DNA of 41,828 nucleotides from a virus (lineage: Duplodnaviria; Heunggongvirae; Uroviricota; Caudoviricetes): IMG/VR virus record IMGVR_UViG_2541047798_000006. One strand, written 5' to 3'. The translations under genes and the position numbers were made by a program. The notes beneath the pieces are model-generated. The model had not been told where the DNA came from. It did no database searches and was given only the letters and a program-made list of their open reading frames with translations. Shown here one piece after another: positions 10-32,957 of this stretch. Positions within the stretch are counted from its first letter, which is position 1, and each line of letters begins with the position of its first letter.

Positions 10-291
10 TCACATCCAGCCACGAAGTTGATGTTCAACTACAACCGCGTATTCATCGAATATTGACGATTTTTTTGCATCATTAATGATGCGCACGTTT
101 ACAAAATATCCATCTTCCTTAACACATACCGGTTCGCCATCTTCAGTCAGTTCTCCGGTTTCTTTGTACACGTTACCTATCACGTCAATAAGAATATCAT
201 CCTGCATCGACTCGTCATCATAATAGCCAATGCTATCCATAAAGGCCGAAAAGTCGGCCCTGTCTGCAAATTTGAGTGTTAAATCTTTCAT
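10..291 (-). CDS. hypothetical protein immediately downstream of side tail fibre gene (tfa position, not Tfa-like)
   Basis: 93-aa ORF; its start overlaps the stf stop at 291; acidic, no recognisable Tfa motifs. Confidence 0.45.
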   Translation of the reverse strand: MKDLTLKFADRADFSAFMDSIGYYDDESMQDDILIDVIGNVYKETGELTEDGEPVCVKEDGYFVNVRIINDAKKSSIFDEYAVVVEHQLRGWM

Positions 292-2663
292 TAGATTGAC
301 TCCCCCATCTGAGCATCAGTCAATGCCTTGTGCCATATTCTGAAATTCCTGACATGACCAAATAAATGACGCAACCCGGCTGTAGTCTGGCCTCCAATAC
401 GGATAATTGCGGAGTTCTGAATATAGGACCATGTGGCTTTCTTTTCGCTGGATATACGCCCGTTACTTACTGAGCACGTAGACTGATCTGACTTTACACG
501 CATCCCCATAACCATTTTTTCAAGCGATGCGTTTTCGTTTACCCGTCTGTTAGCCAAACCTATATCACAATAAGGAAATCCGTCGTAATCTGTTGAACGA
601 CCGAAGCCAAGAATAATAGCCGCTCCGGTTTGATGACCGCCGGTATCAAAAACACGCGGTGCTGCATTTGGCGTTTTATACCAGTTCTTATGTACCTCAC
701 AAAGAACCGTAAAAGGAAGATTATAAAGATTATTCTTAATTGGAACTGTAACTATATCGCTTGCGCGGGTCGCCGCCGTCGCTCCTGATATAATAAAAGA
801 TGATACACAAGGCCCATCTTCTACTTGTGGGGTGGCCAGATAAATATAGTCACCAGATACGGTTGCCCCGCTCTGCTTAGGAGAATACTGTATCTGAGAG
901 CCTATTTTTAACTCCCCATCAATTGCCTGAATTGTTGCCTCTGCAAAAATCCATCCGGTAGCTTCGTCCTTTCTGACTCTCGCTGTAATTCTTGAGGCAG
1001 CACCGCCTGTCATATTAATTTCAAGCGTTTGTGTATCAATATACGCATCACCAAGAAAAGTTGTTGCGCTACCGTCATATTTATCAAACCGGATACGCAA
1101 CCTTACCTGCAGTTCTGTTTTAAAACGACATGAGGTTGTCACGTGTTTATTATCGCCTGAGACATCAACTGACTTTGTTGCAGCAATTGATGCCATATTA
1201 ATGGCTGAGGTTTGCCCAATCAGAGAATCGTTGCAGACAAACTTTCCATAGGTAAAACCAAAATTATCCGTCCCTGTTTCGGGCACATCCATATTTGACG
1301 ATCGCCCCCAACTGGCAGGGCTTTCCGAATTGAGCATGTAGTTTGTTCTTTGCCCCTCAATAAGCAGGCCATCACGTTCAAATCGTGGCTCGTCAATGGC
1401 AGCCTCTGTCAGCACACCAGATTTGTTAATATAGGTTGCTTTCGATGCACGTTTAAACTTAACAATCTTGTCGCCAGGCATCGTTATTTCATCGTCACCA
1501 ATAACAATTTTTTTATATGATGGCGAAAAGCCCGTAATCATATCCAGCGAATCGTTAAATGGTATCCACACATCAGGCAGCGGCTGTAAGACATATTTAT
1601 ACGGCTCCGCAGCCTGGCTTGCGTACTCTCTGGCTGCATCTTCGCTTGCTTTAGCTGCCGTCTGGCTTGCTGCCGATGCTTTCGCTGAGTTCGCAGCCGC
1701 TGTTTCGCTCACCTTTGCGTTGGTTTCACTGGTTTTTGCTGCTTTTTGACTGTTAGCTGATGCAGTAGCAGAAGCAGCCGCCGCGCTTGCAGAACTGGCT
1801 GCGGCACTCTCGCTTTGGGCCGCTGCATCCTGACTGCTTTTCGCCGCAGTTTCACTGGCTTTGGCATTCGTTTCGCTGGTCTTCGCTGCCGTCTGGCTGG
1901 ACTTTGCGTTAGTTTCACTCGTCTTCGCAGCTTTCTGGCTGTTAGCCGCAGCAGTTGCTGATCCAGCTGCTGAAGTCGCAGAACCGGCTGCCGCGCTCTC
2001 GCTTTGGGCTGCTGCAACCTGGCTGTTTTTTGCCGCAGTTTCACTGGCTTTAGCATTCGTTTCGCTGGTCTTCGCTGCCGTCTGGCTGGACTTTGCGTTG
2101 GTTTCGCTCGTCTTTGCGGCTGTCTCGCTATTTTTCGCGTTGGTTTCTGATTTTTTAGCTGCTGTTGCGGAGTTTGCCGATGCAGTCTGCGAGGCCGCTG
2201 CCGCCTGTGCGCTGTTAGCTGCATTCGTTTCTGAGGTTTTCGCCGCGTTCTTCGATGATGCCGCTGCAGTTTCGGATTTCTTTGCCGCCGCTGCGCTCTG
2301 AGAGGCGGCTTCAGCGTTGCGTGCCGCTTCTTCCACCATCTGCTCAAAGCGGCGCAGTGCCTCCGGTCGGACATCATCCTCCGTCATGGCACCGAGAAAA
2401 TCATTCAGCGTACCTGGTCTGGAACCTTCATAGACGGTAATGGTCCCGGCATGTGAAGGCGGAAAACCTTCAACCAGCAGGGTGACGCTGTACTGACCAT
2501 GCTCAACATCCATGCTGTAACGTCCGGCTTCATCCGGATTTTCAGAGGCCACCGTGTTCACCACCACCGTGCTGCTGGTTCGTCTGGCCTTCAGCACAAT
2601 GGTGCAGTTCTGTACTGGTTTTCCTGTGCCATCTTTAAGCACGCCAGAAATTTTTACTGTCAT
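291..2663 (-). CDS. stf: side tail fibre protein, lambda Stf-like N-terminus with Ala/Ser/Thr-rich repeat shaft and a different C-terminal domain
   Basis: N-terminus MTVKISGVLKDGTGKPVQNCTIVLKA...GFPPSHAGTITVYEG matches lambda Stf from memory; C-terminus ends ...HVRNFRIWHKALTDAQM, a lectin/LamG-like signature. Confidence 0.85.
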   Translation of the reverse strand: MTVKISGVLKDGTGKPVQNCTIVLKARRTSSTVVVNTVASENPDEAGRYSMDVEHGQYSVTLLVEGFPPSHAGTITVYEGSRPGTLNDFLGAMTEDDVRPEALRRFEQMVEEAARNAEAASQSAAAAKKSETAAASSKNAAKTSETNAANSAQAAAASQTASANSATAAKKSETNAKNSETAAKTSETNAKSSQTAAKTSETNAKASETAAKNSQVAAAQSESAAAGSATSAAGSATAAANSQKAAKTSETNAKSSQTAAKTSETNAKASETAAKSSQDAAAQSESAAASSASAAAASATASANSQKAAKTSETNAKVSETAAANSAKASAASQTAAKASEDAAREYASQAAEPYKYVLQPLPDVWIPFNDSLDMITGFSPSYKKIVIGDDEITMPGDKIVKFKRASKATYINKSGVLTEAAIDEPRFERDGLLIEGQRTNYMLNSESPASWGRSSNMDVPETGTDNFGFTYGKFVCNDSLIGQTSAINMASIAATKSVDVSGDNKHVTTSCRFKTELQVRLRIRFDKYDGSATTFLGDAYIDTQTLEINMTGGAASRITARVRKDEATGWIFAEATIQAIDGELKIGSQIQYSPKQSGATVSGDYIYLATPQVEDGPCVSSFIISGATAATRASDIVTVPIKNNLYNLPFTVLCEVHKNWYKTPNAAPRVFDTGGHQTGAAIILGFGRSTDYDGFPYCDIGLANRRVNENASLEKMVMGMRVKSDQSTCSVSNGRISSEKKATWSYIQNSAIIRIGGQTTAGLRHLFGHVRNFRIWHKALTDAQMGESI
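1620..2330. repeat. intragenic tandem repeats in stf shaft (about 189-nt period, with roughly 30-nt sub-repeats)
   Basis: near-identical DNA blocks starting at about 1801 and 1990; protein shows reiterated AKTSETNAKSSQTAAKTSETNAKASETAAK. Confidence 0.7.
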
Positions 2664-2814: not shown

Positions 2815-3414
2815 TCAGAAACGGTATCCGATACCAACAATAAATGCATCCGTTCGCCAGTCGCCACTGCCGGAGCCTTCATAAGCAATATCAATGGCCA
2901 CGGATTCGGTCGGGTTAAACTGCACGCCAGCCCCCCACGCCAGAGACGTGTTGCTGTGGCGACCGTCATCACTTCCGGTCAGCACATCGTGCGTTTTCCC
3001 CGTATTGTCGGTCACCTGCAGATAATCCCCGGAGAAAGTCGACACACGGCTGTAAGCCACACCCGCCATCGCATACGCGCTGAACCATTCATTCACGCGC
3101 ACAGACGGCCCCGCCATCACGCTGAACCAGCGGTTACGCACGGAATCTTCATGCCAGCGGGTATCGCTGTAATGCGTTTTTTGCTCATCTTCAGCGTTGG
3201 CATAACTGAATGACGTAATCAGCCCCAGCGTGTCCGTAAACTCATAACGGTATTTCACGTTAATCCCGTTCAGATTATCGCTGCCGGGAGCGTTCGTACG
3301 GGCATGAAGATACCCTGCGCTCAGTGTGGCCTGCTGCTCAGACGCCCATGCAGGCGCACCGGATACGGCCAGACAGATGGCTGCGGACAAAATGGCTGCA
3401 CAAACTTTACGCAT
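2815..3414 (-). CDS. lom: Lom outer membrane protein (Ail/Lom family)
   Basis: 199 aa; signal peptide; ...[24 protein letters not shown]-terminus as in lambda Lom. Confidence 0.9.
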
Positions 3415-3481: not shown

Positions 3482-6400
3482 TCAGCTAATCGTGATGCCT
3501 GTAGTGGCTTTCTTCATCACCACAACCAGCAAATCGCTGATACTTGCTGTGGGATACCAGTTATTTACCAGCCATGCTGACACCGAAAACTCCAGTGTCA
3601 TGTGACCGTGACCGGCAGGCATATCAATAACGCCACTGTAAATCAGCGTATTATCCAGCGCGGTACGGTTATAAATTTCAGCACCGTTTTTCCGCACTAT
3701 CAGACGGCATGAGGAGTAAATATCAGTATGCTCTTTCTCATGTTTAGCGCCGCTGAATGCCACCGCCGGAATAACAATCTGCCGGTCAAACGGCTGATCG
3801 TCATAAACCCTGACGGTAATGGTTCCTGATGGCCACCGCTCCGGTGCACGGGAGTCCCGGGGGAAAGCTTTGCCCACTGTTTTAACGAGATCGCCTTCAA
3901 TCTGGTTCGCGGACAATTTTCCCAGAACCCGACAGTTCTCGTTAATCGTGACGTTGTTGAGCGTCCCGGAGTTCGCATTCACGTTACCGCTGATATCGGC
4001 ATTTTTCGCCGTCAGCCGCCCGTCCGGTGTCAGGGAAAATGCCGGAGGATTACCGCCGCTGGTAATGGTGGGGGCCGTCAGGCGTTTCAGGAACACTTCA
4101 TTCATGAATATCTGATCGCCCTGACCAACAAACATCGGCTTTGTGTTGCCATTCGCAGGATTAATCATCGCAATCCTGTCTGCTGCCAGCAGCACCTGAC
4201 TCTGCATGCCGTCAGGGGTGTTCTCAATACCGGCACCGATACCCGCAATATAAAGGCGTCCGTCCTGCATCTGCTGCAGCTTCACTGCCCACATGCTGTT
4301 CAGGTTATTATTTGTATCAACCTGAACCTTCTGTATCTGCTGGATCGCTGCACTCTGGTCTTCCAGTTTCTTATTGACGGTCTGTGTTATTTCATTGCTG
4401 ACATCCGTTATGGACGTCCTGATTTCAGTCAGGTCAGGCGCAAGCTGACCGTTATCAATCTGCGTCCACAGCTCCTGAGCCAGATGGGTTTTCCCTATCT
4501 CGCCTTTGAAAAAATCCAGATAGCCTGATGCATCATCACTCGGCTGACCGACAGCCTCCACGAATGCCGATTTGCCAACGGTGTTCACACTGCGAACGTA
4601 AAAATAATAATCATGGCCCGGTTTGATATTGATACTGGCGGCTATCCAGTACAGTGCCGTACCAAGATAACGCGCGCTGGTTTCAACCTGCCTGATATCC
4701 GCAATCCGTTTTTCCGAGAACCAGAACTCAAACTGTACCGTCGGATCATAAACCGCAAGATGCGGCGTGGCGGTTATCTGAAAATAGCCCGGCGTCAGCT
4801 CAATCCGCGACGGTGCTGCCGGTGCGGCAATCCGGAATGATACCGACGCCGGATCACCCTGCTGCCCCCAGGCATTTACCGCCCTGACTGTCAGCCTGTA
4901 GTTTCCCAGCGCCAGTTGCCTGAAGCGGTATGTGGTTTCCGTCGTCCGGGCCGTGCTGACCAGCCGCTCACTGCCGTCATCCGCTGCCACGGTCAGGCGA
5001 AGCATAAAGCTCACCCCCTTCACCACCTTCGGCGTATCCCAGCGCGCCAGCACCTGGTATTCCCCGCTGTCTGCGGTGACTTCTGCGGTCAGGTGCTGCA
5101 CTGCTGGCGGCGTGACACCGTTCACCGTTCCGCTCTGGTCGCCGTCAAAGTGCGCCCCGTTATCCACGATGGCTTCTTTCTCCGGCACATGCTGCACGGC
5201 AGTGATGGCATACGTGCCGTCATCGTTCTCACGGATACTCACACAGCGGAACAGGCGCTGGCGCAGCGTCGGCAGCTTCAGCCCCCATACGCTGTATTCG
5301 GCAACACCGTCAGGAACACGGCTCACTTTTACCTTCACGCCGTCGGTGACGGACTGAACCTCCACGCTGACCGGATTGCCACTTCCGTCAACCAGGCTTA
5401 TCAGCGTGGTACCGGAGGATGGCAGCGTGATTTCACGGTCGAGCGTCAGTGTCCGCGTCTGGCTGTTCACCGCCAGCACGCGCCCGCCGATGCTGATACC
5501 CGCATAGTCATCATCACAGATTTCAATGACATCGCCCGGTACATGGCGAAGCCCTTCTGCACCCACGCTGAAGTCCACGGTCTGCGTTTCCAGCAGCTCC
5601 GTTTTAATCAGCCACAGCCCGGCGCGGTGTGCCTGCCCCCGGCTGGTACAGCCAAAGGCATCCATCTTCGTGACGTTACGACCGTAACGGAGAATGGCCT
5701 GCGTATCTTCAACAAGCTCTGTCGCCGTCTCCCAGCCGTTATTCGGGTCAATCCAGTTCACCTCAACGGCATTATGGCGGTCCTTCAGGGCGCTGAAGCT
5801 GTAGCGGAACGGCGCGCCATCATCCGGCATCACCACATTACTGCGGTTATAGGTCCACACCTTATCCGACGGTCGGTCCTGCACGAACGTCAGCGTCTGC
5901 CCGTTCCATACCGGCATACAGCGCATCGCCGAGCAGAAATCACTGAGAACATCCCACGCCTTACGCTGTGTGGTCAGGTAGGCATTACAGGTGATGCGCG
6001 GCTCCGTGCCACCAAAGCCATCCGGCACTGACTGATCGCAATACTGGCCGATGACATACAGCGCCCATTTGTCCACATCCGCCGCACCAAGACGTTTCCC
6101 CATGCCGTAGCGCGGGTGGGTCAGCATATCCCACAGACACCAGGCCATGTTGTTGCTGTATGCCGGTTTAAACGTCCCGTCCCAGATACCGCTGTATTGC
6201 CGCGTCTGCGGGTTATAGTTCGATGGCACCTGCAGAATGCGCCCGCGAAGATGATAATTACGGCTCACCTGCTGGCTGCCGAACTGTTCCGAGTCCACCT
6301 GCACGCCGACCAGTGCCGTGTTCGGGTAGCACTGTTTCACATCGATGATTTCAGTGTATGACGACCAGAGCGTTTTGTTCTGCAGCTGGTCTGTGGTGCT

Positions 6401-6961
6401 GTCCGGCGTCATCCTGCGCATCCGGATATTGAACGGTCGCGGCGGCAGGTTATCCACCACCACCGAGGCCAGATACTGCGACGTGGTTTTGCCCTTAATG
6501 GTGATGTCTTTTTCCGTCACCCAGCCACCGTTACGTTGTATCTGAACCAGCAGGCGGACTTCCGACGGATTCCGGTCACCCTTTGAGGTGGTTTCCACCA
6601 GTGCCTGCACACCGAAGGTAAAGCGCAGACGGTCGATGTTTGCAGACGTGATGGTCCGGGTGATCGGCGTGTCGTATTTCACTTCCGTACCCAGCACCGT
6701 CTCGGAACCGGAGGATTCAAATCCCTCCGGCGGTGTCTGCTCCTGCTCACCTGCCCGGAACACCACCGTGACACCGGAGATGTTGGTATTCCCCTCACTG
6801 TCCAGCACCGGTGTACTGTTCAGCAGCACGCTTTTTAATCCATCCACCGGACCTTCAACCGGCCCTTCGCTGATGGCATCGATCACACTCAGCAACTGCG
6901 TGGACTTCAGGTTGTCCTTCGCTTCGCGCGGGGTATGCCCCTTACTGCTTCCTTTACCCAT
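3482..6961 (-). CDS. J: central tail fibre / host specificity protein J
   Basis: 1159 aa; C-terminus ...[42 protein letters not shown] matches the lambda J LamB-binding end from memory. Confidence 0.95.
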
Positions 6962-9038: not shown

Positions 9039-9367
9039 CAGTTCACCACCTGTTCAAACTCTGCGCTGAACTCAACACGCAACATACTGACCCGCGACGA
9101 CCATTTTGCGCAGGTCACCTTTATCTGCCGCCAGTCATAAGGCGGCGTCCACAGAAAGGCTTTCCAGCCTCCGTGCTCTGCCAGAAACGATTCCAACGCC
9201 GTGGCCTCCCAACGGGGGACAGAAATCGTCACGCTGTACGTTTTCAGGTTGGCATTCAGCCCGGCAGGCGCGCGCTGGGAATAGCCATCACCAAAGCGCA
9301 CCTTCCTGACGGAAGGAGCCGAAGCCACATCCATACCGGGTTTCACTTTCCAGCGGAAGGTTTTCAT
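9038..9367 (-). CDS. M: tail tip protein M
   Basis: 109 aa, lambda M-like. Confidence 0.9.
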   Translation of the reverse strand: MKTFRWKVKPGMDVASAPSVRKVRFGDGYSQRAPAGLNANLKTYSVTISVPRWEATALESFLAEHGGWKAFLWTPPYDWRQIKVTCAKWSSRVSMLRVEFSAEFEQVVN

Positions 9368-11863
9368 CGTCCACCTCCGGAGAACAGACCACCATCACGC
9401 ATCTGCCCGGTCACAACATCCATTGCCGCCTTGCGGGCCATGTCATACACTGCCTTCAGCATCTGTGGACCTGGCAGACCATTCGTGCCGTCGTTATTAA
9501 TCACCACATGGTTATTCTGCTCAAACTTCCCGGACGCCTGCGACCGGCTGTCCGCCAGGCTGCCCGGTGTACCGACATAACCACCGGTGGCATAGCCGCG
9601 CATCAGCCGGTAGAGATTCCCCACGCCAATCCGGCTGGTTGCCTCCTTCGTGAAGACAAATTCACCACGGTGAACAATCCCCGCTGGCTCATATTTGCCG
9701 CCGGTTCCCGTAAATCCCCCTGTCGCAAAATGGAATTTCGCCGCAGCTGCCTGAATGGCTGTACCGCCTGACGCGGATGCGCCGCCACCAACAGCACCGC
9801 CAATGGCGCTGCCGATACTCCCGACAATCCCCACCATTGCCTGCTTAAGCAGAATTTCTGTCATCATGGACAGCACGGATCGGGTGAAGCTGCGCCAGTT
9901 TTGTTCACTGCCGGTCAGCATCGCCGCCATATTCTGTGCAATACCATCAAAGGTCTGCGTGGCTGCACTTTTAACCTGCGACATACTGTCCGTGGCGCTC
10001 TCTTCCCACTCACTCCAGCCTGACTTGAGGCCTGCCATCCAGCTCCCGCGAAGCTGGTCTTCAGCTGCCCAGGTCTTTTTCTGCTCTGACATGACGTTAT
10101 TCAGCGCCAGCGGATTATCGCCATACTGTTCCTTCAGACGCTGTTCCGTGGCGTCCCGCGCTGCCTGCCGGTCAGTCAGCCCCCGGTTTTTCGCATCAAT
10201 GGCTGCCCGTTTTGCCCGTTGTTGCTGTGCGAATTTATCCGCCTGCTGCGCCAGCGCATTCAGGTGCTCCTGATACGTGACCTTATCGCCAAGTGCAGCC
10301 AGCTGGCGTTTGTACTCCAGCGTCTCGTCTTTATGCGCCAGCAGGGATTTCTCCTGTGCGGACAGCTGGCGACGTTGTGCCGCCTCCTCCAGTACCGCGA
10401 ACTGACTTTCTGCCTTCCACAAATCCCGGCGCTGCTGGCTGATTTTCTCATTCGCTGTCTTCCTGACGATCGCCCGCAGACACCTTCACGCCGGACTGTT
10501 TCGGCTTTTTCAGCGTCGCTTCATAATCCTTTTTCGCCGCCGCCATCAGCGTGTTGTAATCTGCCTGCAGGATTTTCCCGTCTTTCAGTGCCTTGTTCAG
10601 TTCTTCCTGACGGGCGGTATATTTCTCCAGCGGCGTCTGCAGCCGTTCGTAAGCCTTCTGCGCCTCTTCGGTATATTTCAGCCGTGACGCTTCGGTATCG
10701 CTCTGCTGCTGCGCATTTTTGTCCTGTTGACTCTGCTGTTCAGCCTTCTTTCGGGCGGCTTCAAGCGCAAGACGGGCCTTTTCACGATCATCCCAGTAAC
10801 GCGCCCGCGCTTCATCGTTAACAAAATAATCATCCTTGCGCAGATTCCAGATGTCGTCCGCTTTCTTAAACGCAGCCTCTGCCTTAATCAGCATCTCCTG
10901 AGCGGTATCAGGACGACCAATATCCAGCACCGCATCCCACATGGATTTGAATGCCCGTGCTGTCCTGTCTGCCCAGGTTTCCAGCGTGCCCATGTTCTCT
11001 TTCAGGCGTCGGGTCTGGTCATCAAACCCTTTCGTTGCGGCCTCGTTCGCCGCCTGCAATGCCCCGGCTTCATCGCCGGAACGCTGCAACTGAGCAACAT
11101 ACGCAATCTGCTCCGCCGTCACGTTATGGAACTGGCGCGCCATCGCCGTCAGCCCCGACGTCGGGTCAGTGGTCAGCTTCCCGAAGGCTTCAGCGACCTT
11201 GTCCACCTCCACACCGGATGCAGAGGAGAAACGCGCCACACTCTGGCTGATGGACGCAATCTGAGCCTCACCGCTTACCCCCGCCTTAACCAGTGCACTG
11301 AGTGACTCGCTGGTCTGGTTAAACGTCAGCCCTGCAGCCTGCCCGGCTCTGGACAGGACCAGCATACGATCTGCCGTCAGTCCCGCCTGATTACCGGAAA
11401 GGACCAGCGTTTTGTTGAAATCGGACAGGGTTGAGTTACCCTGATACCAGGCATACGCCAGCGCACCGGTCGCCACCGCCAGCGAGGTGGCCCCGACCAT
11501 CGGCAGGGTGATCGCACCGGCAAGCCCCCGGAACATGGGGATCATCCCGCCGAAGGAGTCCTTAACCTGACCACCCTGTTGCAGCAGGATCAGCCACGGG
11601 CTTTGCCCGCCTGCAAGCTGCGTGGCCACGTCGGTGAACTGTGCAGGCAGCATACGCATGGCGGCTTTATACTGCCCGACGGAAATCCCCGCTTTCTGTG
11701 CAGCCAGCGCCTGTCGGCTCAGCGACTGTTCAACGACTGCCGCTGTTTTTTTCGCATCACTTTCCGTACCGGAAAAATGACGCCTGACTCTGGCCATCTG
11801 CTCGTCAAATCTGGCCGCATCCAGACTTAAATCAACGACCAGATCGCCTACCGGTTCAGCCAT
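9364..11863 (-). pseudogene. H: tail tape measure protein H, split into two reading frames
   Basis: N-terminal piece 10448..11863 (471 aa, ends TGA at 10448) and C-terminal piece 9364..10422 (352 aa, TTG-initiated in the ORF track) are both lambda-H-like but in different frames; the second frame is open upstream to 10485. Confidence 0.7.
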
Positions 11864-25478: not shown

Positions 25479-25785
25479 ACCCCGTCTCCCGTTATCCGGA
25501 AGCTGACAACAATAAAAAAGCCACCAGTTAACTACTGATGGCTCTGATAACTCATGCAAGCGTCTCAGACGATCCACTGACACTATCGGTGAGTTTAACG
25601 ATACCTTCCATTTGACTGGCTCACTTTTTATGATGATGCCGGTGCATTTATCTCCAGCACCAGACTTTCTATCTCAACGCCATACGTTGCATTTTTGGTA
25701 ATATCCGTCAGCGTCAGTGCATTTAGTCCCACTGCCAGACTGTCTTTTATGGCCTGGAATGCCGGGCCAGTACGATGACGTAGTA

Positions 25786-27481: not shown

Positions 27482-27558
27482 TGGCGCGCTGTACTGGATT
27501 CGAACCAGTGACCGATTGCTTAGAAGGCAATTGCTCTGTCCGGCTGAGCTAACAACGC
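27482..27558 (-). tRNA. tRNA-Arg (anticodon UCU)
   Basis: 77 nt; acceptor GCGTTGT/ACAGCGC, T-loop GGTTCGAATCC, anticodon loop CTTCTAA, 3' GCCA. Confidence 0.85.
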
Positions 27559-27659: not shown

Positions 27660-27735
27660 TGGTGGCCCTTGCTGGATTTGAACCAGCGACCTGGCGATTA
27701 TGAGTCGCTCGCTCTCACCACTGAGCTAAAGGGCC
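27660..27735 (-). tRNA. tRNA-Ile2-like (anticodon CAU; could be read as Met)
   Basis: 76 nt; closely resembles E. coli ileX from memory; anticodon loop CTCATAA. Confidence 0.85.
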
Positions 27736-27878: not shown

Positions 27879-28700
27879 TTACCTAGTTACCTTTTTTAAC
27901 TGCCGCTCAGCCCATGCTTCTTCAATATCAAACCGGGTCACCAGCGCATCATAGAATTTCTTAACTGTTTTTTCCCATGACGCGCGTGTTATCTGGTTTG
28001 TCACCTCGCATATAGCATTAAATGCCTCCGTTGATGGTAGTCTTTCATAGCCACGACCACCACAACGCTGGCAGTCTCTGATAACAGGCATACCACGTTT
28101 TACCGACTCTTCACGATGAATGGCGACACCACGCCCACGGCAATCCTTACAGGCGGTGGAAACCTCACCCTTTCCGCCACACTCCGGACAGGCAACTTTT
28201 ACCACCTCCCTGACTTTTTTCCATTCTTCCCAGTAAGACGGATACACACCTTTCGTACACTTTGCCCATACCGGCGGCTTACCATCCGGATACTGGACCT
28301 TGTTTGTAAAAACTACGCTTTCAATAAATTTTTCCCCATAGCAACAAGGGCACTGCTTTTTACTCGCTGCGCTGCGGGCATAATCCTCAAAAGCGTACGA
28401 AGCCATAATGCGCATCACTAACGGTTTTATTTCTGCCGGAAGTTTTCTCAACGCCGCCACACGATCGCACCGACTGAGTGCATAATCTGCCAGTAATTCT
28501 GTTGCCCGCGCCCTGTCATTCATACTGATGCCCATTTTCCCCAGGAACGCAGAAAACCCCATCTCAGCCCGATTCTGTGTCATGCCCTGCGCGGCCATCA
28601 CATCAGTGATACTCAGCGCATCTTTTGACGTTGAGGCCGATACATCGGTCAGGCCAGGGGATTTTGGGGAGTAGTATTTCGGTAAATCTTCCAGTTTCAT
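27879..28700 (-). CDS. Q: antitermination protein Q (zinc-finger, phage 82/QuuQ-like)
   Basis: 273 aa with CPECGGKG, CKDCRGRG, CQRCGGRG motifs; sits upstream of pR'/tRNAs/lysis genes. Confidence 0.75.
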   Translation of the reverse strand: MKLEDLPKYYSPKSPGLTDVSASTSKDALSITDVMAAQGMTQNRAEMGFSAFLGKMGISMNDRARATELLADYALSRCDRVAALRKLPAEIKPLVMRIMASYAFEDYARSAASKKQCPCCYGEKFIESVVFTNKVQYPDGKPPVWAKCTKGVYPSYWEEWKKVREVVKVACPECGGKGEVSTACKDCRGRGVAIHREESVKRGMPVIRDCQRCGGRGYERLPSTEAFNAICEVTNQITRASWEKTVKKFYDALVTRFDIEEAWAERQLKKVTR

Positions 28701-31650: not shown

Positions 31651-32295
31651 TTAACCACAGATGATATTGAAACGTTCTCCGGAAATCTTGACCATAATGT
31701 CAGACAGTTCGCTGACGGCATGGGCTTCAGATGATCCCAGAGCGTCAGGCTGAACAGCTATTACCGAAGCTCCACTTGCCAGCCCTGCTTTTATACCCGC
31801 AGATGCATCCTCAAATACCACGCATTCACCAGGCTCAAGGCCCAAAGCCAAAGCTGCTTTGATGTAACCCTCGGGACTTGGTTTTCCCGTCATTACATCT
31901 TCTGCACACACCATTACTATGGGTAAGGGGAGATTAGCCGCTTTCATCCTGTTTTCTGCAAGCATTCTGCCTGCAGAAGTGACAAGTGCCCAGCTATCCG
32001 GTGGCAGTTTTGATAAGAGTGCAGCGGCCCCTTTTACTTCAGTAACGCCTTCTGTCATGTTGATTTCAACCTCTTCGAGTGAGGCCGCGATTTTATTGGT
32101 TTTCTCACCTGCACCAATAAAATGCGTCAGTGTATCAATCGTTTGCCGCCCGTGTGCGTAAGCAATCACAGCCTGAGTATCAAGACCGTATTCTGCACAA
32201 AAATCTCTCCAGACGCTTTCCACTACGGCTGTTGAATCAACCAGCGTACCGTCCATATCGAATAAAAAACCCTTAGCGTTGAATATCATTGCCAT
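31651..32295 (-). CDS. HAD-superfamily hydrolase (phosphatase-like)
   Basis: 214 aa, DxDGTL-type motif FDMDGTLVDS near the N-terminus. Confidence 0.8.
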   Translation of the reverse strand: MAMIFNAKGFLFDMDGTLVDSTAVVESVWRDFCAEYGLDTQAVIAYAHGRQTIDTLTHFIGAGEKTNKIAASLEEVEINMTEGVTEVKGAAALLSKLPPDSWALVTSAGRMLAENRMKAANLPLPIVMVCAEDVMTGKPSPEGYIKAALALGLEPGECVVFEDASAGIKAGLASGASVIAVQPDALGSSEAHAVSELSDIMVKISGERFNIICG

Positions 32296-32318
32296 TCCTT
32301 AATGGTTGCAGAAGAAAG

Positions 32319-32957
32319 TTAATCAAACCATGTTTTTTCATCACCTTTCGCTACTCTCAGGCTGACAGCAATCTGCTCAGGCACAATTCTTGAAAGCGAC
32401 AATTCAGGCAGGTCGTTGACATCAAAAAAATCAGCATCGAGTGACTCATGGCTGATTGACAGGCTGCCACCTACTTCTTCACAGAGAAAAATCAGCTTGT
32501 AAACATGCCAGGGTAAAGGCGGATGGCCGTGAAGATTACGATCCCAAACTCCCAATAGTTTAGTCACTCTGACTTTTAATCCGGTTTCTTCTTCGACTTC
32601 TCGACGCACAGCTTCAGAAGGTGTATCTCCAACATCTGCCCATCCGCCAGGAAGACTCCATAATCCATCTGCAGCCTCTTTCACCATCAGAATACGATTA
32701 TTACGCAGGATAAACGCACGCACATCTGTTTTGGGCGTCGCGTAACCCGTTTCCGATACATGAAACAAATCATTGCGGCTAATATCAAACTGCGAACTCA
32801 GCAGTCCAGCGGCAATTTCACGCAAGGCTTCATAGCGTTCCTTGTCAAAGACGTCTTTTGAATAGGTCAGGCCTGACTGCGCGAGGGCCTTTAGTCTCTG
32901 GGCAACAAAAATAAGCTTTTCTTGGGTCAACACTTCAGACATGTTTTTCATCTTCAT
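32319..32957 (-). CDS. NUDIX hydrolase with N-terminal extension
   Basis: 212 aa; Nudix box GGWADVGDTPSEAVRREVEEETGL; 23 nt upstream of the HAD gene on the same strand. Confidence 0.8.
   Translation of the reverse strand: MKMKNMSEVLTQEKLIFVAQRLKALAQSGLTYSKDVFDKERYEALREIAAGLLSSQFDISRNDLFHVSETGYATPKTDVRAFILRNNRILMVKEAADGLWSLPGGWADVGDTPSEAVRREVEEETGLKVRVTKLLGVWDRNLHGHPPLPWHVYKLIFLCEEVGGSLSISHESLDADFFDVNDLPELSLSRIVPEQIAVSLRVAKGDEKTWFD

Follow-up and report, generated by a model that had tools for sequence, protein, structure and literature searches.

What kind of tip does a lambda-type side tail fibre carry when its C-terminus does not resemble that of lambda Stf, and what, if anything, stands beside it in place of the chaperone Tfa? 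The question is raised by IMG/VR virus record IMGVR_UViG_2541047798_000006 (Caudoviricetes), a stretch of 41,828 nucleotides (nt) that is called the window below. At one end it carries a fibre gene of 790 amino acids (aa), listed in RefSeq as WP_021537978.1 under the label 'prophage tail fiber N-terminal domain-containing protein', followed by a gene for a 93-aa acidic protein, p93. We conclude that the 790-aa gene encodes the side (lateral) tail fibre of a lambdoid prophage that occupies the ydfJ/rspB site in Escherichia coli, an ordinary and widespread mosaic in which a lambda-type attachment end and shaft are joined to a sugar-binding-like tip and a small partner gene. Taken as a whole, we consider it likely that the appendage comprises a lambda-type collar and shaft, a two-domain lectin-like tip, p93 as the partner of that tip and, probably, a second fibre protein that makes it a branched, two-protein structure. 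The elements of the locus are as follows.

291 to 2663, minus strand: side (lateral) tail fibre gene, 790 aa (open reading frame (ORF), PHROG 1419 match and annotation in the identical E. coli record)
2271 to 2663, minus strand: residues 1–131, lambda-type Stf N-terminal domain (PF08400; PDB 9e7m)
1608 to 2360, minus strand: Ala/Ser/Thr-rich heptad-repeat shaft, residues ~102–352 (register, composition and lambda homology)
1713 to 2129, minus strand: 189-nt tandem repeat, 2.2 copies, giving two 63-aa units, residues 188–313 (Tandem Repeats Finder, TRF)
762 to 1601, minus strand: conserved junction (PLPDVWIPFNDSL...) and first predicted beta-sandwich domain, residues 355–634 (NF048003, AlphaFold2 and invariant columns in alignment A1)
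294 to 761, minus strand: predicted Laminin_G_3/ConA-like beta-sandwich, residues 635–790, ending ...GHVRNFRIWHKALTDAQM (C-terminal and most variable part of the module)
10 to 291, minus strand: p93, 93-aa acidic protein (PHROG 1361; WP_000654140.1; ORF, PHROG match and synteny)

A lambda-type collar and shaft carry a lectin-like tip

The attachment end of the fibre is that of lambda. Pfam PF08400 (phage_tail_N) matches residues 1–131 (E=1.5e-68; 229.4 bits against a cut-off of 26.6) and the solved lambda Stf collar chain, PDB 9e7m, matches residues 1–94 (E=2e-47), the region assigned in the Ur-lambda structure paper (PMC12617516) to the collar that anchors the fibre on the tail. In a BLASTP comparison lambda orf-401 is 58% identical to the fibre over 342 aa, spanning the N-terminus and the shaft through residue 328. 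Ala, Ser and Thr make up 63% of the shaft, which shows a clear 7/14-residue register and, judged by homology, is a coiled coil equivalent to the proximal coiled coil of lambda Stf (lambda residues 102–393, PMC12617516). The first-pass annotation had proposed a lambda Stf N-terminus over the first ~120 residues followed by a long Ala/Ser/Thr-rich shaft, and both proposals hold. Homology to solved or tested proteins can be regarded as establishing the collar attachment and the coiled-coil shaft; residues 1–94 would clamp the trimeric fibre onto the tail, and residues ~102–352 would form a heptad-repeat shaft whose length is partly fixed by a 63-aa unit, present twice here.

The C-terminal part is another matter. 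Lambda orf-314, the distal half of Stf, has no similarity to the fibre by BLASTP (best E=5.2), which agrees with the earlier suggestion that the tip is a module different from that of lambda. NCBIfam NF048003 (GTA_spike_fiber) matches residues 434–634 over positions 1–181 of its 182-position profile (50.5 bits against a cut-off of 36; E=3.3e-13), and the relatives of residues 355–790, sought exhaustively without profiles, fall into 2027 clusters at 50% identity, 443 of which have E<=1e-10. We modelled the tip with AlphaFold2 from an alignment (A1) of the query and 29 diverse representatives of its relatives. The model has a mean predicted local distance difference test score (pLDDT) of 90, mostly above 90 in the blocks of the first domain, and a predicted template modelling score (pTM) of 0.87. 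It consists of two all-beta domains, at model residues roughly 45–265 and 275–425, with the two-sheet jelly-roll sandwich that characterizes the Laminin_G_3/ConA-like superfamily. Its best fold matches are carbohydrate-binding domains. The strongest is carbohydrate-binding domain 4 of the arabinanase AbnA (match score 19.4), followed by phage Pa193 baseplate gp46 (17.2), botulinum toxin Hcn domains (15–17), sialidase CBM40 lectin domains (about 15), and pentraxins and laminin-G domains (12–14).

Among the 30 aligned family members, 19 match Laminin_G_3 at E<=0.01 (best E=6e-12). In relative P0304 the match (41.4 bits, profile positions 8–151) reaches the C-terminus of the protein, and in phage 21 Stf it lies at residues 560–681. 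On the strength of these matches in relatives and of the model, the C-terminal signature that had been read from the sequence alone as LamG/concanavalin-like therefore corresponds to the final strand of a Laminin_G_3 domain. The hidden Markov model search and structure prediction suggested as a check on that earlier claim thus bear it out, prediction and family membership together establishing a lectin-like fold for the tip. The last domain is also its most variable part, being 48–99% identical among otherwise near-identical fibres.

Taken together, the C-terminal 436 residues would form two concanavalin-A-like beta-sandwich domains, the first related to the RcGTA head-spike fibre and the second of the Laminin_G_3 type. 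The RcGTA fibre binds capsular polysaccharide and is the only experimentally studied relative of the tip (PMC10218006). By analogy, glycan binding is the most likely function here, and both sandwich domains most likely recognize surface polysaccharide (O-antigen, capsule or lipopolysaccharide core) for a reversible first contact.

p93 is the invariant neighbour of the tip

The TAA stop codon of the fibre gene and the ATG of p93 overlap by 1 nt (TAATG, sharing nt 291). p93 is strongly acidic (isoelectric point 4.17; 22.6% Asp+Glu) and matches PHROG 1361, a family of unknown function, from end to end (residues 1–93 on 1–92 of 92; E=8e-47). It belongs to no Pfam or NCBIfam family, lambda Tfa has no similarity to it by BLASTP (best E=34), and it shows neither sequence nor fold similarity to the known tail fibre chaperones (Tfa/Caudo_TAP, gp38, gp57A); its AlphaFold2 model (pLDDT 85) has no informative fold match. 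The description of this gene as an acidic ORF unlike lambda Tfa was therefore correct. The wording that the fibre has 'no Tfa-like chaperone' is too strong, because the tip module is strictly accompanied by p93, whose gene overlaps that of the fibre and which is the obvious candidate for the role.

The conservation of this arrangement is strict. We found 80 IMG/VR loci with the fibre tip, and all 78 that extend past the fibre stop codon have a p93 homologue after it. Conversely, 154 of the 155 IMG/VR loci with a p93-family ORF have directly upstream a fibre ORF that ends in a LamG-type domain, with an overlap of 1 or 4 nt. The pairing extends to distant loci, whose tips share 30–58% identity with a family member that in turn has about 31% identity to that of the window: every one with a complete fibre ORF (74 of 74) has a p93-family ORF at the fibre stop, acidic and of 93–100 aa. 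p93 homologues also adjoin fibre genes in isolated phages, 183 in all, from at least six groups, including lambdoid, Drexlerviridae, Dhillonvirus, Queuovirinae, T5-like and rV5-like phages. Eight further loci from Aeromonas, Leclercia and Silvania came from a single-peptide-pattern scan of genome contigs and give only a rough idea of host range.

Since p93 stays beside the fibre tip in essentially all of these loci, even where the tip is only about 30% identical, it is most likely a dedicated partner: gene order points to a non-Tfa assembly or accessory protein of the tip module, which in place of Tfa would most likely act as a folding or assembly factor or as an accessory of the tip itself. 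A broader proposal, to which we give about an even chance, is that the p93 family (PHROG 1361 and distant relatives that start M[KR]D[LI]YLRF) may constitute a class of proteins, so far unrecognised, that are dedicated to tail-fibre assembly or act as tip accessories, obligatory for head-spike-fibre/LamG-ended fibres across siphoviruses and myoviruses of gamma-proteobacteria and analogous in function, though unrelated, to Tfa, gp38 and gp57A.

The invariant pairing of p93 with the tip is absent from the literature searched here, and that search returned no paper containing the accessions of the fibre or p93 proteins. In the passages searched, the DT57C structure paper mentions no chaperone, lectin-like domain or small partner protein. 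Gifsy-1 Stf, followed as a literature lead, proved inapplicable, being lambda-type throughout.

A distal fibre gene and alternative roles for p93 and the tip

The window edge cuts the locus. In the identical genome, E. coli CU37RT-2, p93 is followed immediately to the left of window position 1 (L001 5992–7000) by the gene for a 234-aa 'tail fiber domain' protein, then by a 97-aa membrane protein and by sitABCD, an iron/manganese transporter cargo. The 234-aa protein has an N-terminal coiled coil and a Peptidase_S74 domain (PF13884; 27.4 bits against a cut-off of 22). Across loci the third gene encodes 234, 346, 340 or 583 aa and keeps an N-terminal motif, MATxTxIP, which is common to Gp24 of phage IrisVonRoten and to 62 IMG/VR loci. 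In IrisVonRoten, Gp22 is a proximal fibre whose galectin-like domain protrudes at the C-terminus and serves as the docking site of the T-shaped distal Gp24, as described in 2025 from predicted structures only (PMC11990801). A downstream gene with both the docking motif and the S74 domain, as in a branched fibre of two proteins, is thus present, outside the window, in the identical genome. Because the 234-aa protein carries the Gp24 motif, the appendage is probably a branched two-protein fibre in this prophage, by analogy with the docking proposed for IrisVonRoten, and a single-protein fibre in relatives of the phage 21 type; the 234-aa protein would be a small distal fibre with a self-cleaving S74 chaperone domain, bearing the N-terminal motif seen on the IrisVonRoten distal receptor-binding protein. 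In phage VogelGryff the gene after the p93 homologue, bas25_0024 (L252 3767–4933; 388 aa), is annotated 'putative lateral tail fiber chaperone'. Its C-terminal end resembles the C-terminal part of an S74-bearing third-gene protein (E=3e-4), and from this similarity it seems to be a distal fibre protein and not a chaperone in its own right.

This gene order suggests another role for p93, that of a structural adaptor which links the distal fibre protein to the proximal fibre and is not a folding chaperone. Wherever the third gene with MATxTxIP is present (62 loci) it always follows p93, IrisVonRoten has the same order of Gp22, a 92-aa protein (RefSeq 'tail fiber protein') and Gp24, and an S74-type fibre gene comes after p93 in many distant loci. 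Yet p93 occurs without a distal fibre gene, and directly before the membrane protein, in 85 of the 147 E. coli-type loci, phage 21 among them, and in some distant loci it is followed by apparent baseplate genes, as read from the sequences only, no family search having been made. What p93 accompanies is therefore the fibre tip and not the third gene, a tie to the distal fibre gene is ruled out, and we rank the adaptor, which is possible though doubtful, below the dedicated partner of the tip for this reason.

The distal gene bears likewise on the tip. The earlier view of the tip as a receptor-binding module stands as far as its lectin-like fold is concerned; the tip may be neither the sole nor the terminal receptor binder, since a distal fibre gene follows in the source genome. 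One could go further and regard the two sandwich domains mainly as a docking or stabilising platform, with receptor specificity residing elsewhere, in the distal protein or in J. We think this unlikely. Variability is greatest in the last domain, as expected for a surface that contacts the host, the distal protein is absent from phage 21-type loci, the closest tested relative binds capsule, and the best fold matches are to domains that bind carbohydrate. Finally, p93 could be a passenger with no relation to the fibre, such as an anti-defence or regulatory moron that merely lies after the fibre gene. This would accord with its lack of a recognisable family or fold, with the frequency of cargo downstream of lambdoid fibre genes and with the nearby sitABCD, but it is very improbable given the stop/start overlap in 154 of 154 cases, the retention of p93 in strictly lytic phages of several families and its persistence beside tips only about 30% identical to that of the window.

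Several points count against the favoured arrangement of collar, shaft, lectin-like tip and p93 partner. According to the RefSeq annotation of the identical genome the tape-measure gene (9364–11863, minus strand) carries a frameshift; therefore this copy of the prophage may be silent or defective and may never have been assembled into virions. The loci were sampled through a fibre or a p93 query, so that cases of absence are possibly under-sampled. The window fibre itself has no Laminin_G_3 (PF13385) match at E<=0.1 and lies below every Pfam threshold (gathering 27.6 bits), and the LamG assignment therefore rests on its homologues and on the predicted fold. Lastly, the identities of p93 and of the LamG domain diverge: in L070/L076 the LamG domain is 48% identical and p93 about 90%, and in L049–L056 the LamG domain is 87% identical and p93 42%. 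p93 thus lacks the co-variation with the LamG domain that an allele-specific chaperone might show. The lack of co-variation argues against a tightly allele-specific contact of p93 with the variable tip surface, and we therefore make no claim of specific contact there.

Shaft length and repeat copy number vary among relatives

TRF reports the shaft repeat with a period of 189, 2.2 copies, 84% matches and a score of 603, in agreement with the ~189-nt tandem repeats described earlier. The two 63-aa units agree at 56 of 63 residues and 160 of 189 nt, and the longest exact in-register run is 47 nt. As a measure of shaft length in database homologues and IMG/VR loci we took the distance between the KISGVL motif of the N-terminus and the PDVWIPF junction. 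Four classes, of 254, 296, 359 and 422 residues, were found, the window having 359. The classes 296, 359 and 422 are spaced by exactly 63 residues and correspond to one, two and three repeat units; L078 is an example with three. Given this spacing, the length variation that the first-pass annotation had suggested the repeats might drive is indeed observed in relatives once their copy numbers are compared. Each unit would lengthen the coiled coil by roughly 9 nm if the helix rises by ~0.15 nm per residue, and unequal recombination between the 189-nt repeats would yield shorter and longer shaft alleles.

Two further ORFs, of 222 aa (1709–2377, minus strand, other frame) and 146 aa (1861–2301, plus strand), overlap the shaft and look like by-products of the repeat composition. 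An antisense ORF of lambda, orf206b, is annotated at the equivalent position within orf-401 (L085 1248–1868).

Spread and mosaicism of the fibre

At least eight E. coli assemblies contain identical DNA. Coverage of 80% or more of the 2.7-kb query was found in 453 of 5426 complete genomes. The isolated phages PhiR63_1, HannyBb, Tritos and 2G7b have the locus at 96–97% identity. PHROG 1419 ('tail protein') matches the fibre from end to end (residues 1–790 on 1–793 of 793; 1484.8 bits). The tip occurs on N-termini of the lambda type, the Drexlerviridae (tunus) type and the P2/Mu type (PF12571), and in two database homologues, P0245 and P0047, both domains of the tip are fused to a P2/Mu-type 'tail-collar fibre' N-terminus, so that the cassette crosses between siphovirus and myovirus fibres. 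The idea of a swapped module is thus upheld in that the cassette moves between phage groups; what fails is the notion of a rare swap, the tip being one of the common E. coli side-fibre alleles. The fibre is a common and already catalogued allele, and a homologue, IrisVonRoten Gp22, is in print (PMC11990801). One 25-kb viral contig, IMGVR_UViG_2724679539_000001, holds two fibre/p93 loci in opposite orientation (L062 3113–12423 and L063 13074–22384), perhaps two prophage ends side by side, perhaps an artefact of assembly.

Comparison with known fibres

Like Ur-lambda Stf/Tfa, the fibre has the collar domain (residues 1–94) and a heptad coiled-coil shaft, lies after J and lom and presumably has the same role in fast reversible adsorption. 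Unlike it, the fibre does not end in the gp37-like, OmpC-binding tip of lambda, which has no similarity to the window tip, and is not followed by Tfa, which has none to p93; the full lambda combination of gp37-like tip and Tfa is therefore not found at this locus.

Phage 21 (CPT_21_22/CPT_21_23, OL657228) shares the N-terminus, a highly conserved junction and first sandwich domain, a LamG-type last domain, a 92-aa p93 homologue (53% identical) and sitABCD cargo downstream at the same prophage end. It differs in its shorter shaft (686-aa fibre), in the clearly greater divergence of the last ~150 residues and in the lack of a distal S74 fibre gene. In the T5-like phage IrisVonRoten (Bas32) the C-terminal module of Gp22 is homologous over its whole length, the overall identity of the two fibres being about 53% and that of the tip higher; a p93 homologue (92 aa, 38% identical) follows, and then the distal Gp24 with the same N-terminal motif and an S74 C-terminus. 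Gp22 differs in its T5-type N-terminus, attached through an LtfC-like collar protein, and the distal protein is a 574-aa fibre with two receptor-binding domains as against 234 aa here. The RcGTA head-spike fibre (rcc01080) has in common with the tip the NF048003 domain (residues 434–634) and the predicted two-domain, lectin-like beta architecture, whereas it attaches to the capsid vertex and not to the tail, through a 10-residue N-terminus, and has no coiled-coil shaft.

Prophage setting

The E. coli CU37RT-2 chromosome contains DNA identical to the window, and from this correspondence the lambdoid prophage extends from an integrase beside rspB to the p93 gene. The order J, lom, stf in the window is that of lambda.

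2815 to 3414, minus strand: Ail/Lom gene, upstream of the fibre gene on the same strand
3482 to 6961, minus strand: J gene, 1159 aa, upstream of the fibre gene on the same strand

Elsewhere in the window, genes for tRNA-Arg and tRNA-Ile (27482–27558 and 27660–27735, minus strand) adjoin the late antiterminator gene (27879–28700), and genes for a HAD-family hydrolase and a NUDIX hydrolase lie side by side as a cargo pair (31651–32957, minus strand) between the replication genes and the antiterminator. A 19-codon coding sequence in the lysis region (25552–25611, minus strand) is labelled 'tail fiber protein'; it probably represents a gene fragment or an artefact of annotation.

Implications

The first-pass observations on the sequence are confirmed and their interpretation is supported in part. 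Side-fibre tips help to determine the range of E. coli surface types open to a temperate phage, and this allele is carried by many isolated phages and by about 8% of complete E. coli genomes. Apart from what it implies for tip swapping, the finding is one of routine tail-fibre mosaicism. The invariant pairing makes p93 a candidate non-Tfa partner of the fibre that can be tested, and those who engineer host range by swapping the tip would probably need to move the 93-aa gene too, at a locus that often includes a further, distal fibre gene.

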